This document shows, in pieces, positions 3 through 5,181 of a DNA stretch of 64,000 bases. The notes beneath the pieces were generated by a model. It was given only the letters and a program-made list of their open reading frames with translations, had not been told where the DNA came from and did not search any database. Position numbers and translations under genes: made by a program. The first letter of the stretch is position 1. Each line of letters starts with the position of its first letter. Origin of the DNA: an uncultured archaeon (GTDB lineage Archaea; Hadarchaeota; Hadarchaeia; Hadarchaeales; Hadarchaeaceae); NCBI GenBank assembly GCA_937921735.1, contig CAKZTQ010000032.1, forward strand, positions 1-64,000. The letters run 5' to 3'.

Positions 3-2675
3 AAGGTCTTCACGCTCAAGGTCACGAACACCTCTGGCGACCCCATAAACAGTGTCAAGATCACCATACCCAGCGGCTTCTCGAACTTGGCGGCGGTGGC
101 GAAGGTGCCCAAGGACAACCTGCTGACCTGCGTCGACGACAACGTCGTTATCCTACCCGCGGGCACCCTCGTGAAGCTGAAGTCGGCGTCGGTGAACGTG
201 ACGATCTACGAAAACACCGATGTCATCAGGGAGAACAACACTTGGGTTTGGGTGCCGACGCTTGGCGAGAATGCCCTGTTGAGGGACAACGCTCTTGTCG
301 AGGTAACAATAAATAATAACACTACCACCGGTCTTGCGCAAAACGACAACTTGGCCCCCGCCAAGCATACCTCCGTGACCTTGGAGAATGGGGCCGAACT
401 CAGGTTGCTCCAGGATACCCTCGTGGTTAGGGTGAGCGGCAACGTGGTGAAGCTGCCGGAAGATACGTTGCTGGAGGTGACCAGCGATCGCTCCACGGGA
501 GATAACCTAAAGGTAAACGAGAACATCAAGGTAATGCAGGACAAGAAGGTGGTTCTAACCGATAACAAGTTAAGGACCGTCGCTAGTGTGCCAGTGCTAA
601 GGGGTGGCGCCATCGAGGCAACGCTTGGGGCGGGCGTGGTAGTAGAAATGATGGTAAACAACGGGGTAATAATCCCAAGCGGCACGGTGGTTAAGCTCCT
701 CGCTAATGTTTCCGTGACGATACCCGAGAACACCGACGTGAAGAGGGCGAGCGGCAAGAAGATGGAGCTGGTGACGCCCGCCGCGGCCGAAGGCCAACCC
801 GTCGGGTGGACCTTCGACGGCACCGACACCTGGTCGACCGACAACACCGCGAGGATGATCGCGCCCGGCGCCAGCCTGGAGTTCCCGTTCGCCGTCGACG
901 TGGGGTACTTCGGGACGCCTGAGAATTCGAAGAAGCCGGACGACTACGTGACGGTCGTGTGGGCGGTCAGCACCTGGGACACGAAGGGCGCGAGGGCGGA
1001 CAAGAGCTACAACACCATAGTCGACTACAAGTGGCCGACGATCTACCGCATCTACGTCAACGACGTATACTATCTCCCAAAGGTCAAGGCGGGCACCACC
1101 GCGAGCGTCAAGATCTCGACTAGCTATTATGAGGTAGTGACGGGCATGGAGGAGAACAGCGTGGTCATAACCGTCGGCCCAGCCGACAACATAGTCGAGA
1201 ACTTAAAGTGCACCACGACCGACAACATAGACTGGTTCACGAGCTTCGTCGTCAAGCCCGAGTGGGAAAACAAGGACGTGAGAATAAGGGTGCGTGAGAA
1301 TACCCTCAGGGACAGGGCCGGCAACACAGGGCCATGGCTGCCTGGAGGCTTTGCTTCGCATCGTATCTACGTCGACAACGCGCCGCCGTTGAGGCCGCAG
1401 GACCTGAAGTTCTCGGACCTCGACAGCCTACCCGCCAAGACCAACCAGGCATCCTGGCTCCTCACCGGCAGGTGCGAGGACAACGCGGTCTCCGCTTATA
1501 CGCCCGACACGCTCACCGCCGTGGTAGAGGTCAACGGGAAGGTGACCAAGCAGACCGTTGAGAGGGGCGTCTCGCCCTACTACACCTTCGCCATACCCAT
1601 AACCCTCGATGAAGGTCCGAACACCGTCAGGGTCTGGGTGGAGGACTACGTCGGCTGGGTGGGCGAGAAGGTCGAGAACAAGGCCTTCCTCGACACCAAG
1701 CCGCCGAGCGTCCAGTTGGTCTCCATCGCGGGCAAGAGCTTCGTCGAGAACATGGCGATTAACGACAACAGGCCCAAGATCGTCGTCAAGATGCTGGATC
1801 CAGGCTACGCCGAGAACAAGGGCTTGGGCGTCGTCTTCCCGGAGAACGTGAAGGTGCAGATCCGACGCTTGGACGGCAGCGTCGTAGCGACGCTCGAGAA
1901 CTCTAACGTCTGGAACCCGGCGACGGGCATCTTCGAGAACACGCTGGCGGAGGCGCTACCCGACAACTGGTACCTCGTCCACATCGAGGCGGGCGACAAC
2001 CTGAACGCTCCCACCGTGGAGAACTTCAGGTTCGAGGTCGACACCACCCCGCCCGCGCTGCCGGGTGCGCCGACGGTGACGATACCCGAGCGCACTAGGG
2101 TGGCGACCGTGACCGTCGCTGGGACCGCGGAGCCCAAGGCTACGGTGAAGGTCGTGGTGAAGCAGGACGCCGAGGTGAAGGTCACCCAAACGACCACCGC
2201 GGACGAGCTAGGCAACTTCAGCCTCAAGATCTCGCTGCCAGAAGGTACTAGCAGCATCTGGGTCTCGGCCATCGACAGGGCCGGCAACGAGGGCCCGGCC
2301 AGGCTCTACGGTACCGTCATCGTCGACAGCGCGGTGCCGACGGTCACCATCATCTCGCCGGCGGACAAGACGACTACCAGCCAGGCGTCGATAGCCGTGG
2401 TGGGCAAGGTCAGCGAGCCGGCGAAGTGGACGGTGATCGCGCCCGCGGGCACCTGGAGCGGCAGGACGGACAAGGACGGCAACTTCAGCGTCTCGATAGC
2501 GCTCGTTGAGGGCACCAACACCATCGTGGTGACGGCCGAGGACGACGCGGGCAACGTCTCGACGCCCAAGAGCGTAGAGGTGACGAGGACCGTCACCGCC
2601 TGGGGCACCTACGCGATAATCCTAGTGATCATAGCGCTGATACTGGCTGCGATCGCGATCTTCAGGAGGAAGTGA
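3..2675 (+). CDS. Large cell-surface/S-layer-like protein with Ig-like repeats and a C-terminal membrane anchor (5'-truncated by window)
   Basis: Frame is open from position 3 (KVFTLKVTNTSGDP...). Beta-rich DN/EN repeats, several Ig-like modules (D..GN, L.EG.N.I), C-terminal TM helix plus basic tail (YAIILVIIALILAAIAIFRRK). Confidence 0.8.
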   Translation, partial: KVFTLKVTNTSGDPINSVKITIPSGFSNLAAVAKVPKDNLLTCVDDNVVILPAGTLVKLKSASVNVTIYENTDVIRENNTWVWVPTLGENALLRDNALVEVTINNNTTTGLAQNDNLAPAKHTSVTLENGAELRLLQDTLVVRVSGNVVKLPEDTLLEVTSDRSTGDNLKVNENIKVMQDKKVVLTDNKLRTVASVPVLRGGAIEATLGAGVVVEMMVNNGVIIPSGTVVKLLANVSVTIPENTDVKRASGKKMELVTPAAAEGQPVGWTFDGTDTWSTDNTARMIAPGASLEFPFAVDVGYFGTPENSKKPDDYVTVVWAVSTWDTKGARADKSYNTIVDYKWPTIYRIYVNDVYYLPKVKAGTTASVKISTSYYEVVTGMEENSVVITVGPADNIVENLKCTTTDNIDWFTSFVVKPEWENKDVRIRVRENTLRDRAGNTGPWLPGGFASHRIYVDNAPPLRPQDLKFSDLDSLPAKTNQASWLLTGRCEDNAVSAYTPDTLTAVVEVNGKVTKQTVERGVSPYYTFAIPITLDEGPNTVRVWVEDYVGWVGEKVENKAFLDTKPPSVQLVSIAGKSFVENMAINDNRPKIVVKMLDPGYAENKGLGVVFPENVKVQIRRLDGSVVATLENSNVWNPATGIFENTLAEALPDNWYLVHIEAGDNLNAPTVENFRFEVDTTPPALPGAPTVTIPERTRVATVTVAGTAEPKATVKVVVKQDAEVKVTQTTTADELGNFSLKISLPEGTSSIWVSAIDRAGNEGPARLYGTVIVDSAVPTVTIISPADKTTTSQASIAVVGKVSEPAKWTVIAPAGTWSGRTDKDGNFSVSIALVEGTNTIVVTAEDDAGNVSTPKSVEVTRTVTAWGTYAIILVIIALILAAIAIFRRK

Positions 2676-2688
2676 GGGGAGACGCAAA

Positions 2689-2719
2689 TCTTCCCCTCTT
2701 TTTTGTATTTTTGTTTTTG
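2689..2719 (+). terminator. Oligo-T archaeal terminator
   Basis: T-rich run (tcttcccctctttttt gtatttttgtttttg) immediately after the surface-protein stop codon. Confidence 0.55.
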
Positions 2720-2782
2720 ATTCCCGTCGCGGCAACGCGTCGTGTTTTCCCTTCATAAAATACCTTCGCCAAAGCTCCGCCG

Positions 2783-2840
2783 TGACACACGTATGTCGTC
2801 GAGCCCCAGTTCAACGCCAACCGCCCACACGCGTACGTCA
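2783..2840. repeat. Two upstream copies of the 16-bp palindrome
   Basis: TGACACACGTATGTCG at 2783-2798 and degenerate CCACACGCGTACGTCA at 2825-2840, 42 bp apart. Confidence 0.7.
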
Positions 2841-3014
2841 TACCTGCTCGTGTACGACATACGCAGGCCGGACAACGCCCTTAGGCTAAGGGTGAACAGG
2901 CGTCTGAAAGGGCTGGGGGCGTCGAGGTTGCAGCACTCGGTCTGGGAGCTCGATCGCCTGGACGACTTCTTGGGGCTCGCGACCCTCATGAGGTCGGCGG
3001 CGGGAAGGCGCTGA
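2793..3014 (+). CDS. Small Cas2/ChrB-N/PaaX-like ferredoxin-fold protein, probably frameshifted near its C-terminus
   Basis: YLLVYDI...RLRVNRRLKGLGASRLQHSVWE matches the Cas2-type pattern. An alternative frame from ~2999 reads GGKALILEKRVVL, the expected final strand. The ATG lies inside a palindrome copy. Confidence 0.6.
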   Translation: MSSSPSSTPTAHTRTSYLLVYDIRRPDNALRLRVNRRLKGLGASRLQHSVWELDRLDDFLGLATLMRSAAGRR

Positions 3015-3038
3015 TCCTCGAAAAGAGGGTCGTCCTGA

Positions 3039-3281
3039 TGACACACGTATGTCAAAGATCTCGCGACGTTCGGCAGTTTTCTGACTCACGTGTGTCACGT
3101 TTTTGACATACGTATGTCATCAACCCTTGACTCCCAACATCTGCCGTGACATACGTATGTCATCGATTTCGGCCATGCGTTTCGAGTTTGACACACGTAT
3201 GTCATCCAGCCCGCCCAGCCCCACAGCTGACACGCGTATGTCATCGGGGATAGGACGCCGTCAAGTGATACACGTGTGTCA
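3039..3281. repeat. Array of seven 16-bp palindromes, consensus TGACAYRCGTRTGTCA(TC)
   Basis: Copies start at 3039, 3082, 3104, 3147, 3189, 3228 and 3266. Gaps between copies are 27, 6, 27, 26, 23 and 22 nt. Confidence 0.95.
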
Positions 3282-3356
3282 TCGCGCCGGCGGCACCGAA
3301 GCGATACCTTTATAAGCCCGTGTCCCCCGTATGAGCTTCAATTGCCCGGTGATTTT

Positions 3357-3605
3357 ATGGAGTTCTGCCCCAAGTGCGGCAGCGTCCTCCTGCCCAAGAA
3401 GGTGAGGCGCAGCACGAGGCTCGAATGTCCCCGCTGCGGCTACGTGGGCAAGCTCAAGAGGCCCGCCGCCTACAAGATCAGCGAGAAGGGCAAGGAGGCC
3501 AAGGAGGTGGCGGTCATCGAGGAGAAGGAGCCGAAGAAGAAGAGGCGCCCGGAGCAGGAGTACGAGCTCGAGCCCATGGAGTACTACGAGGAGCTCTACG
3601 AGTAG
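3357..3605 (+). CDS. TFS/RpoM (RPA12/RPB9/RPC11) family protein with N-terminal Zn ribbon only
   Basis: MEFCPKCGSVLLP...CPRCGY. No C-terminal Zn ribbon or catalytic DE; ends in an acidic/Tyr-rich tail. Confidence 0.75.
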   Translation: MEFCPKCGSVLLPKKVRRSTRLECPRCGYVGKLKRPAAYKISEKGKEAKEVAVIEEKEPKKKRRPEQEYELEPMEYYEELYE

Positions 3606-4403
3606 CTAGACCTTCACCACCGCCCCCTCGAGCGCCCTCCCGCAGCCGCAGGAGCGTTTCTCCGGGATCCTCGCGACCGCCTCGGCCAGCAGCGCCTTTA
3701 CCCTCCCTGCGCTCGCCGCCATCAGCTCCGCCACCTCCGCGTGCGTCAGCTTCCCGCGGGAGATGCCGGCCGCGAAGTTCGTGATCACCGCCACCGCCGC
3801 GTAGCAAAGCTCCAGCTCCCTCGCCAGCACGCACTCGGGCACGTTGGTCATCCCCACCAGGTCGCAGCCCAGGCGGCGCATCGCCCTTATCTCGGCGGCG
3901 GTCTCGAACCTGGGTCCCTCGGTGCACGCGTAGGTCGCGCGGGGGTGGAGCTTGAGCTTCAGCTCCTTAGCCGCCTCGAGCAGCGAGCGGCGGAGCTCGG
4001 GGCAGTAGGGCTCCGTCACGTCGACGTGCACCACTCCCTTTTCGCCTCCTTCGTAGAAGGTCATCGCGCGCTGCTTGGTGAAGTCCACGAACTGGTGGAG
4101 CAGCGCGAGCTCGCCTGGCCTCATGCGGCGGTTCATGGAGCCGGACGCGGTGGTCGCGAGGACGCGGGTAACCCCCAGCTCGCGCAGCGCCCAGAGGTTG
4201 GCGCGGTAGTTCACTAAGTGAGGGGGAACGGTGTGTCCCCTGCCATGGCGCGGCATGAACGCCACCTCGCGCCCGCCTAGCCTGCCCACCACCAGCTCGG
4301 GGGGCCTTCCGTAGGGCGTCTCGAGGGTCACCTCCCTCGCCCCCTCCAGAAGGTCCAGCGCGTAAAGGCCAGAGCCGCCTATGATCGCTATCTCCGCCCT
4401 CAC
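3606..4403 (-). CDS. mtnP: MTAP-family purine nucleoside phosphorylase (methylthioinosine/6-oxopurine type likely)
   Basis: IIGGSG, PRHG..H, EGPRFET.AE, VGMT motifs. Has TNFAAG where adenine-specific MTAP has DYD. Confidence 0.9.
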   Translation of the reverse strand: MRAEIAIIGGSGLYALDLLEGAREVTLETPYGRPPELVVGRLGGREVAFMPRHGRGHTVPPHLVNYRANLWALRELGVTRVLATTASGSMNRRMRPGELALLHQFVDFTKQRAMTFYEGGEKGVVHVDVTEPYCPELRRSLLEAAKELKLKLHPRATYACTEGPRFETAAEIRAMRRLGCDLVGMTNVPECVLARELELCYAAVAVITNFAAGISRGKLTHAEVAELMAASAGRVKALLAEAVARIPEKRSCGCGRALEGAVVKV

Positions 4404-4407
4404 GCGA

Positions 4408-5181
4408 TCACCTCCCAAACCTCCGCTCCCTCCTCTGGAAGGTTCTGATGGCGCGGAGGAAGTCTATCTTCGAGAACTCCGGCCAGTGGGCCTCGCAGAA
4501 GTAGAGCTCGCTGTACGCCGACTGCCACAGCAGGAAGCCGCTGAGCCTCTCCTCCCCGCTGGTCCTGATGATTAAATCGGGGTCGGGGCTGCCGGCGGTG
4601 TAGAGGTGCTCGCCTATCGTTCGCTCGTCCACCTCCTCCGGCGAGAGCTCGCCCCTCCGAACGCGCTCGCATATCCTCCTCACCGCGTCCACGATTTCCG
4701 CCCTCCCGCCGTAGCTCAGGGCTATGTTGAGGAAGTAGCCGTCGTAGCCCTTCGTCGCCTCCTCCGCCTCCCTTATCGCGGCCACCACCCTTTCCGGCAG
4801 GCGGCTCAGATCCCCTATTACCCGGACGCGAACCCTGTTCCTGTGCACCCTCTCGTCGCGCGAGATCTGCCTGAACTTCTCGGCGAAGAGGTCCATGAGG
4901 GCATTTACCTCCTCCTTGGACCTGTGGAAGTTCTCCGTCGAGAAGGCGTAGACGGTGCCGTACCTGATCCCCAGCTCTTGGCACCAGCTCAGGACCTCCT
5001 CCAGCTTCTCCGCGCCCAGGAGGTAGCCCTGCCTCTCGTCCATGCCCGCCTTGCGCGCGAAGCGGCGGTTGCCGTCGAGGATGATCGCCACGTGCTTGGG
5101 CATCTCCCCCCTCTTCACCTCATGGAGCAGGCGCCTCTCGTAGTACCTCGCCGCCAGGCGGAGCAGCCTATCCAAGATCAT
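4408..5181 (-). CDS. uppS: cis-prenyltransferase (polyprenyl diphosphate synthase)
   Basis: HVAIILDGNRRFA, YAFSTENF, YGGR.EI, IRTSGEERLSGFLLWQ. Confidence 0.95.
   Translation of the reverse strand: MILDRLLRLAARYYERRLLHEVKRGEMPKHVAIILDGNRRFARKAGMDERQGYLLGAEKLEEVLSWCQELGIRYGTVYAFSTENFHRSKEEVNALMDLFAEKFRQISRDERVHRNRVRVRVIGDLSRLPERVVAAIREAEEATKGYDGYFLNIALSYGGRAEIVDAVRRICERVRRGELSPEEVDERTIGEHLYTAGSPDPDLIIRTSGEERLSGFLLWQSAYSELYFCEAHWPEFSKIDFLRAIRTFQRRERRFGR

Follow-up and report, generated by a model that had tools for sequence, protein, structure and literature searches.

Solo Cas2-like genes of archaea beside their cognate 16-bp palindromes: a candidate self-repressing, REP/RAYT-like pairing

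Introduction

Near the start of a 64,000-nucleotide stretch of DNA from an uncultured archaeon of the Hadarchaeota (contig CAKZTQ010000032.1 of assembly GCA_937921735.1, positions 1 to 64,000; hereafter the window), a small open reading frame (ORF) resembling the protein Cas2 of clustered regularly interspaced short palindromic repeat (CRISPR) systems stands among copies of a 16-bp palindrome. What joins a gene of this kind to repeats of this kind? An initial annotation, made from the letters alone, saw a phased array coupled to an orphan Cas2-fold gene. It proposed either a binding platform for a dimeric protein, possibly the autoregulated product of this gene, or a minimal non-CRISPR repeat-spacer array whose RNA the Cas2-like protein would process. 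To our knowledge, Cas2 is the least understood of the universal CRISPR proteins, and outside CRISPR its fold is mainly known from VapD toxins and from the PaaX and ChrB domains.

Here we propose, from sequence comparison and structure prediction, that a dimeric Cas2-fold protein recognises its own palindrome on DNA and represses its own gene, and that its sites are dispersed in the manner of the repetitive extragenic palindromic (REP) sequences of bacteria and their REP-associated tyrosine transposases (RAYT). We give this reading roughly an even chance. Below, G000 is the source genome, G001 a congeneric genome, and other G numbers are genomes of relatives; L numbers denote loci.

Palindromes and gene in the window

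The window is contig C32 of G000, a metagenome-assembled genome (MAG) of 1.06 Mb in 60 contigs, 83% complete and with 57% G+C; the incompleteness of MAGs bears on every statement of absence in this report. A search of 2783-3281 for TGACAYRCGTRTGTCA at up to two mismatches gave 16 strand matches, that is eight sites, at 2783, 3039, 3082, 3104, 3147, 3189, 3228 and 3266. The expected number was 0.05 (largest 2), and none of 100 shuffles gave 16. Seven sites form the downstream array, at the same positions and start-to-start distances as in the initial annotation (43, 22, 43, 42, 39 and 38 bp). They comprise copy 1 at 3039-3054, copy 2 at 3082-3097 (one mismatch), the perfect copies 3 and 4 at 3104-3119 and 3147-3162, and copies 5, 6 and 7 at 3189-3204, 3228-3243 and 3266-3281, these last three being conserved in G001; no strand is assigned to any palindrome. 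A T5 run follows copy 2 at 3099-3103 (cgTTTTTg), and its last T is described as doubling as the first base of copy 3. Most copies have TC(G) on their 3' side, and the copy at 3039 instead has GA on its 5' side, so that the inverted flank already noted for this copy was found again.

Two more palindromes lie at the gene start, as had also been noted. TGACACACGTATGTCG (2783-2798, one mismatch) stands about 26 bp past a TATA-like box, TTCATAAAATA (2752-2762, + strand), whose position suggests a promoter, and it holds the first in-frame ATG (2793-2795). The ninth copy, CCACACGCGTACGTCA (2825-2840, three mismatches), is degenerate and marks the ancestral gene start. Between the box and the first palindrome, 2763-2782 reads CCTTCGCCAAAGCTCCGCCG, a degenerate form of the leader found in the family. 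The stretch 2783-2840 resembles the two-palindrome stretch 3189-3245 of the array, which amounts to a duplication of about 42 bp, and the upstream in-frame ATG comes from this stretch with its second palindrome at 2783.

The Cas2-fold ORF (frame 0, + strand) runs from 2793 to a stop codon at 3012-3014, and its Cas2-homologous part from 2838 to 3008, where the family profile A5 matched over model positions 2-58 of 69 with E=2e-23. The last strand of the family is not in frame. A remnant of it, GGGKALILEKRVVL, was read in the +2 frame of a three-frame translation at 2996-3037 (+ strand), where an apparent 1-base frameshift in the run GGCGGCGGG puts the strand GGKALILEKRVVL out of frame; the intact relative P0019 ends in SAGGKAMILEKRVVRG. 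This frameshift may be an assembly error. Homologues, however, start with MSYL from an ATG inside the palindrome, and the window copy reads ACG at that place (2835-2837); the ACG and the 42-bp duplication are independent signs of decay, and from its sequence the window copy looks decayed. A metagenome scan with P0019 for closer intact orthologues with their flanks gave one weak locus among 599 candidate stretches and nothing usable. A match on contig C46 of G001 was considered as the ortholog of the window gene and rejected, being the ortholog of the C17 paralogue described below. The array at 3039-3281 is best explained as the downstream site cluster of a Cas2-like cassette.

Cognate palindromes at homologous loci

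To collect homologues, the window ORF served as query against 40 relatives, and a family alignment as query against GTDB representative genomes; gene calls in these genomes are simple longest-ORF calls. Outside G000 we found 22 distinct homologous loci in Hadarchaeota and Aenigmatarchaeota. At 20 of them, 16-bp palindromes of 6-4-6 design with TG...CA ends lay within 600 bp of the gene, on both sides in at least 14. The coupling of gene and palindromes proposed for the window extends to most of its homologues; taken as one-to-one it is too narrow, since three further G000 arrays lack a neighbouring gene of this kind, and the local gene itself looks decayed.

The half-site differed with the protein clade, the types being TGAYAY, TGTCAC, TGTTAG, TGTCAA, TGTCTK and TGTCCT. 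We read TGAYACACGTRTGTCA in G004 and G016, TGAYAYAGSTATGTCA in G013 and G011, TGTCACASCTGTGACA in G012 and G003, TGTCTCATATGAGACA in G040, TGTCGTAAATAAGACA in G006, TGTCAAACGTTTGACA at L048 and L052, and TGTCTKAGGTAAGACA at L049. Seven loci, five from Aenigmatarchaeota records and two from records titled 'uncultured', have TGTTAGACGTCTAACA, one of them reading TGTTATACGTCTAACA. In a tree of 21 members each supported clade corresponded to one half-site type (Aenigmatarchaeota with TGTTAG, support 99/97; G012 and G003 with TGTCAC, 99/93), and on a midpoint root the Aenigmatarchaeota clade nests among Hadarchaeota of the short subfamily (82/80).

The same pairing was seen within a single genome. 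G000 has three Cas2-like paralogues with a different palindrome beside each: besides the window gene, an 81-aa paralogue (C17:22456-22698) has four copies of TGTCCTAWWTAGGACA downstream, a motif that forms four further small clusters on other G000 contigs, and a divergent paralogue (C18:843-1130) has TGGCGAACGTTCGCCA on both sides. Of all the sequence comparisons, this specificity within one genome argues most strongly for a link of each palindrome with the protein encoded next to it rather than with an unlinked factor.

The cassettes share an anatomy. Alignment of 18 upstream regions revealed a promoter and leader, TTTATAAAG.ACCTCCACCCAAAGCCTCGGCGGG, common to about ten Hadarchaeota members, in which a conserved TATA box is followed after about 25 bp by the proximal palindrome, placed at -10 to -25 relative to the ATG. 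Archaeal transcripts would start about 25 bp after the TATA box, and the proximal palindrome would thus cover the transcription start. In the 69-aa subfamily it also contains the ATG (-10), for example in G004, G011 and the MAG records L050 and L051; the equivalent copy of G013, whose 3' end is CG, was left out by our listing filter for flanking palindromes and was read directly in the sequence. At the other end of the gene, the stop codon TGA forms the first three bases of the downstream palindrome in G004, G013 and G016.

The cassette also comes and goes. For three cassettes of other genomes, the orthologous flanking genes of G000 lie about 66-124 bp apart with no cassette between them, the flanks of these empty sites being too diverged for target-site duplications to be read. 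The G011 copy has a premature stop, and the family profile matched (E<=1e-5) in 31 of 65 genomes of the order. Overall, the cassette behaves as a presence/absence character.

The 81-aa subfamily differs in that a conserved partner ORF, about 105-109 aa long, lies upstream (in G000 at C17:22114-22443, which is L010:3115-3444; also at L048 and L052), with the motifs IHYQTLE, ERIKLWRK, RWGF and LTW and with the cognate palindrome between the two genes. The partner had no match in Pfam, PADLOC or PHROG, and no conserved partner gene was found in the window or at the loci of the 69-74-aa subfamily. The 81-aa subfamily with its partner may be a two-gene variant of the system.

Fold and predicted dimer

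The window ORF matched the Pfam model Cas2 (PF09827) with E=0.0019 and 18.8 bits, below the cut-off of 23.8. Three intact homologues scored 20.4, 24.0 and 22.4 bits against the same model, one of the three above the cut-off, and 23.4, 21.5 and 18.3 bits against TIGR01573 (cut-off 24.5), none of the three above. PADLOC Cas2 models matched their N-terminal half at about 1e-5, and the only Pfam families found on homologues were Cas2, ChrB_N and PaaX_M. Compared with the PDB, a profile found 3exc with E=7.7e-5. An AF2 model of the G004 homologue, the closest intact one from another genus (54% identical), had a predicted local distance difference test score (pLDDT) of 92.6, and Foldseek placed 2ivy (E=2.4e-4) and 3exc (TMq 0.72) at the top, followed by many Cas2 and VapD entries, so that the nearest solved structures are archaeal Cas2 proteins. 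These searches bear out the fold first suggested for the ORF. As judged from the model, the family belongs to the Cas2 superfamily at the fold level, standing at the edge of the curated models at the sequence level; its genes are often auto-annotated as 'CRISPR-associated endonuclease Cas2'.

The 69-aa protein is very basic, with 14 K/R against 4 D/E and a pI of 11.0. Its homodimer model scored 0.60 against 0.00 for the best control. Among proteins of solved structure, 20 of 30 pairs and 1 of 23 single chains reach this mark. Contacts were the same in 100% of cases between runs, and the partner pLDDT was at least 87. The predicted interface consists of residues 58-69, that is the last strand, and the model supports a predicted homodimer through this C-terminal strand; since Cas2 dimers are solved, the pass may reflect likeness to them. 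A conserved arginine-rich helix 1 (residues 14-26) lies outside this interface and would therefore be free to contact nucleic acid. At least 90% of alignment rows retain the Asp of a YDI motif, and no His-hydrophobic-His (HUH) motif occurs among the invariant columns of the family alignment.

The family is small and taxonomically narrow. We counted 131 clusters among 5.8 billion proteins (E<=0.001) and 102 representatives among 1.84 billion. Every source name of these clusters that states an organism is Hadarchaeota, with relatives in Aenigmatarchaeota; the sources label close homologues of the ORF Hadarchaeota, Hodarchaeaceae or Hadarchaeales, and in a protein atlas related clusters are commonest in Aenigmatarchaeota. 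The patterns searched in IMG/VR brought up no relative, and PHROG gave no match, which leaves a viral origin without evidence from either source.

In another family of the order, the family profile also matched the N-terminus of ORFs of 388-479 aa (E ~1e-6; G025, G029, G032, G037 and G039). A Cas2-like domain may here be fused to a larger protein, much as PaaX and ChrB contain one; a degenerate-pattern scan of the five genomes showed no palindrome excess.

Dispersal of the sites

To what extent do the palindromes occur away from the gene? At up to three mismatches, G000 has 27 sites of the TGACAYRCGTRTGTCA type in four arrays and four single sites, and the reversed-pattern control gave none. 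The motif is therefore clustered and yet not confined to the gene locus. The other arrays, all of them intergenic, lie at C4:2594-2805 (five copies), C16:14411-14583 (five copies) and C45:28416-28664 (four copies), and the single sites at C15:20971, C16:48904 and C15:56351, with a further single match of two mismatches at C11:20664. No Cas2-like ORF stands beside the three other arrays or the single sites on C15 and C16, whose neighbours are unrelated to one another (DUF2330, PHP, metallo-beta-lactamase, MptE-like, dihydroneopterin aldolase). Over all G000 arrays the spacings are 16, 22, 32, 36, 38, 38, 38, 39, 42, 42, 43, 43, 48, 67, 72 and 159 bp. They keep no constant helical register, and the description of the array as phased holds only in part. 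Arrays break MAG assemblies, several sites being at contig ends.

The sequences between the palindromes are related from array to array. A 124-bp alignment at 77% identity joins the window array to the C16 array and to its counterpart on C39 of G001. Single spacers can be paired by eye between arrays, and the alignments indicate that the arrays are paralogous blocks whose spacers are not unique. G001 carries arrays at four syntenic places, at one of which different units have been lost in G000 and in G001. Counted as identical ungapped columns over four alignments of the two genomes, conservation was 200/221 in palindromes (90%), 235/343 in spacers (69%) and 536/608 in flanks (88%).

The C45 array contains a 143-bp insert between palindromes 2 and 3 (C45:28474-28616, L007:4475-4617), partly conserved in G001, notably in GGAGTTAGCTAATTCTTCG; it had no tRNA or Rfam match.

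A CRISPR-like array was considered and rejected, given the irregular spacing, the paralogous and conserved spacers, a genuine CRISPR repeat in G000 that is unrelated, and the lack of a match to mobile elements. Phages and plasmids gave no match, and IMG/VR held no arrays and only six single matches at chance level. The CRISPR arrays of G000 have a 37-nt repeat, GTTTCAGTAGGTGCCTCGTAAAGTGAGGATTGAAAG, with a period of about 72, at the contig ends C21:58230-end and C45:21-about 250. The only Cas1 match of the genome (288 bits) adjoins a canonical cas2 (66.4 bits) at the start of contig C7 (C7:347-1558). The window is thus free of cas1, as had been claimed, and its gene is an orphan in this local sense, in a genome that has a canonical cas1-cas2 pair and CRISPR arrays elsewhere.

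In the Aenigmatarchaeota the sites are single. G065, of about 1 Mb, has TGTTAGACGTCTAACA 21 times at up to two mismatches, 17 of them perfect, and no control match. In three fetched regions all 15 of 15 sites were outside predicted ORFs or overlapped only a stop codon. The sites occupy gaps of tens to a few hundred bp, often no more than about 30 bp from a stop codon, and each is bordered by a T-run and, opposite to it, an A-run. Their neighbours are unrelated housekeeping genes (tRNA synthetases, TFB, TatD, thymidylate kinase, AAA ATPases), and no common functional theme was seen among site-neighbouring genes at the G000 and G065 loci.

These observations bear on a simpler explanation, that of an ordinary transcription factor, an autoregulated repressor or activator whose other sites form a regulon and whose window array controls the downstream Zn-ribbon gene. 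Such a factor would account for the site over the inferred transcription start of its own gene, for the last window palindrome ending about 26 bp upstream of the Zn-ribbon TATA box, for the single sites of G000 about 45-70 bp upstream of TATA-like boxes, and for the syntenic positions of the arrays in G001. It sits poorly with 17 of 21 G065 sites being identical 16-mers, which is unusual for a regulon, with neighbours that share no theme, with a C16 array located between two convergent ORFs, and with spacer homology between arrays at different loci; cassette presence/absence and pseudogenes would be atypical as well. We regard a plain transcription factor as unlikely. The proposed REP/RAYT-like pairing fits better than a regulon because sites stand at both gene ends, composite arrays are copied, dispersed copies are near-identical, and cassettes are gained, lost and found in decay.

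An architectural role has also to be weighed, with the palindromes as centromere-like (parS-like) sites, as roadblocks or insulators between genes, or as sites related to replication, bound with high specificity. Perfect 16-bp palindromes in about 20 copies, spread unevenly in G065 (none at 430-785 kb of the 802-kb scaffold), would suit it, as would symmetric T-run/A-run flanks at which transcripts arriving from either direction would end short of the site. The 69-aa subfamily, however, has neither a partition ATPase nor another partner linked to it; several paralogues with different sites occur per genome, and the presence of the cassette varies between relatives, the profile matching in 31 of 65 genomes. 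A role of this kind seems very unlikely to us. A replication origin in particular is not favoured, with four arrays in about 1.3 Mb of G000 and no Orc1/Cdc6 nearby. At E<=0.001, G000 (83% complete) had no match to the C-terminal domain Cdc6_C, and the Cdc6_C match of G065 is on another contig.

Outside the window, C28:6790-7620 of G000 holds three 61-bp tandem repeats and three inverted copies around an AT-rich stretch of about 470 bp, a layout like that of an archaeal replication origin with repeats of the origin recognition box (ORB) type, or of the ends of a mobile element.

Action on DNA or on RNA

The remaining half of the initial proposal, an RNA array processed by the Cas2-like protein, belongs to a wider RNA-level reading, in which transcript hairpins would be bound or cut by a Cas2/VapD-like RNase, as in a CRISPR-like or otherwise processed RNA array. 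By their entry titles, Cas2 and VapD relatives include endoribonucleases. The YDI-motif Asp is conserved, and the mRNA of the gene would itself carry a palindrome at both ends. The features of the sites point the other way. Oligo-T is an archaeal terminator; action on DNA is favoured because the T-runs of G065 would stop transcription before the site from either direction, and because the T5 run lies inside the window array. It is favoured further because a single array can hold non-palindromic centres in either orientation, and because the arm mismatches show no preference for G-U pairs on one strand: among copies at up to two mismatches they would be G-U on one strand in some and on the opposite strand in others. 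Together with spacers homologous between arrays and species, irregular spacing, and the lack of any phage, plasmid or viral match, these features lead us to set the minimal repeat-spacer RNA array aside, and to see an RNA-level system in general as having only a slim chance. Rfam gave no match on window positions 2000-4500 at E<=1 and none at gathering score on six other loci, and ARAGORN found no gene on 6 loci.

Weighing the proposed pairing

Action on DNA by an autoregulated dimer, the other half of the initial proposal, is the option that the comparative data favour, through the palindromes at 20 of 22 loci, the palindrome over the start codon and the inferred transcription start, and the predicted homodimer. 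In this scheme a very basic homodimeric Cas2-fold protein of 69-81 aa would bind its cognate 16-bp palindrome as double-stranded DNA. With 6-bp arms, a 4-bp centre and TG...CA ends, the palindrome has half-site centres 10 bp apart, which would put both on one face of the helix and suit a symmetric dimer. Bound over the transcription start and start codon, the dimer would repress its own gene; one or more sites would begin at or just past the stop codon, and others would be scattered between genes, grouped into composite arrays in Hadarchaeota and standing singly in Aenigmatarchaeota.

Several findings weigh against this scheme. The window gene looks broken or dead while its palindromes stay well kept, and its G001 ortholog is unassembled, contig C22 of G001 beginning inside the array. 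Two of the 22 homologous loci (L029 and L039) have no flanking palindrome. In the C45 array, with gaps counted, palindromes are conserved no better than spacers (74% vs 70%). The protein has no known DNA-binding motif, and nuclease and RNase activity is what its Cas2 and VapD relatives are known for. The transcription starts are placed by their distance from the TATA box only. Finally, a degenerate palindrome pattern, strongly over-represented relative to its reversed control in many genomes of the order (G012, 43 vs 4; G003, 40 vs 2; G026, 32 vs 2; G040, 25 vs 0), has its strongest arrays in G030 (47 vs 3) and G028 (34 vs 4), where the family profile had no match at E<=1e-5 and seven fetched array loci held no family gene. 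The gene may be unassembled there, because these genomes are 85-88% complete and cassettes are often at contig ends. The large arrays of these two genomes include one five-palindrome composite element in two copies, and the G030 arrays on C10 and C17 agree in the order of their palindrome types.

Some of these findings would be expected if the palindromes belonged to another, unlinked factor, or propagated themselves, with the Cas2-like gene as one landing place or target. The arrays of G028 and G030 are of this kind, as are three of the four arrays of G000, with no Cas2-like gene nearby, and the intact sites around a decayed window gene. An unlinked factor would not predict that three paralogues of G000 are each found beside a different palindrome, nor that palindrome type tracks protein clade in two phyla, and we think it quite improbable.

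Several loci of G026, C54:3026-3057 and C24:4418-4449 among them, have two palindrome types in direct contact (16+16 bp), an arrangement suggestive of adjacent sites for two paralogous proteins.

Relation to known systems

RAYT genes of bacteria are flanked by REP palindromes, and these also occur between other genes, some alone and some clustered. The present cassettes resemble them: in both, a small gene is bracketed by palindromes that are also dispersed in extragenic DNA, the palindrome is specific to the protein lineage, a genome has one or few copies of the gene, and composite clusters have conserved linkers. In contrast to RAYT, the protein described here is a Cas2-fold protein of 69-81 aa and not an HUH/Y1 transposase of the IS200/IS605 type, its palindromes number tens and not hundreds, its hosts are archaea, and mobilisation would be conjectural.

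With the CRISPR adaptation module the cassette shares a Cas2-fold gene followed by short palindromic repeats with non-identical stretches of about 20-27 bp. Its repeats, however, are of 16-18 bp at spacings of 16-159 bp, compared with repeats of about 23-55 bp at a near-constant period in CRISPR arrays; they also stand upstream of the gene, their spacers have paralogues in other arrays and are kept from species to species, and no cas1 is linked. Autoregulated dimeric repressors on palindromic operators offer another comparison, for which the DNA-binding domains of papillomavirus E2 and of EBNA1 are a structural analogy. Half-sites one helical turn apart (6-4-6), a predicted symmetric dimer and a site over what would be its own promoter are alike, but there is no homology, and compared with the operators of a usual repressor the sites here are far more uniform and lie more widely dispersed. 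VapD/Cas2-type toxin-antitoxin systems share the fold, and the upstream partner ORF of the 81-aa subfamily recalls them; the window's 69-aa subfamily has no partner gene, and toxin-antitoxin pairs have no genome-wide cognate palindromes. Cas1 was not found in G065 or G004, both carriers of the family.

PMC10848311 describes a viral Cas2 homologue beside true mini-CRISPR arrays, an arrangement different from the palindrome cassette. A full-text search, which did not extend to subscription journals and supplements, gave no account of a solo Cas2-like gene in partnership with palindromes of its own. Tentatively, then, the cassettes might represent a new class of archaeal element, in which a solo Cas2-fold protein recognises, and perhaps cuts or mobilises, its own palindromic repeats as these colonise intergenic DNA. 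If so, Cas2-fold proteins would have a repeat-recognition role of their own outside CRISPR, and a unit of cas2 plus palindromic repeats would exist without cas1, which bears on how the CRISPR adaptation module met its repeats. The family would offer a possible archaeal counterpart of REP/RAYT and a directly testable case of a Cas2-fold protein with candidate sequence-specific recognition of nucleic acid.

Neighbouring genes and minor observations

Upstream of the Cas2-like ORF, positions 3-2675 hold a gene for a surface-type protein of at least 890 aa, which runs off the start of the window; its domains are Ig-like and glucodextranase-B-like, and its C-terminus is a hydrophobic membrane anchor ending in RRK. 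Downstream of the array is the Zn-ribbon gene (3357-3605, + strand), encoding 82 aa of the RPB9/RpoM type (PF02150, E=5e-9, above the cut-off). Its TATA-like box, CCTTTATAAGCC (3307-3318, + strand), is outside the cassette and conserved in G001. Beyond it follow an MTAP-like phosphorylase and an ORF whose translation, by reading only, resembles an SMC-type ATPase. Elsewhere in G000, a further perfect palindrome, TGGAACAGGAGTTCCA, occurs three times on contig C13 (at 5, 1611 and 2979), about 1.4-1.6 kb apart.

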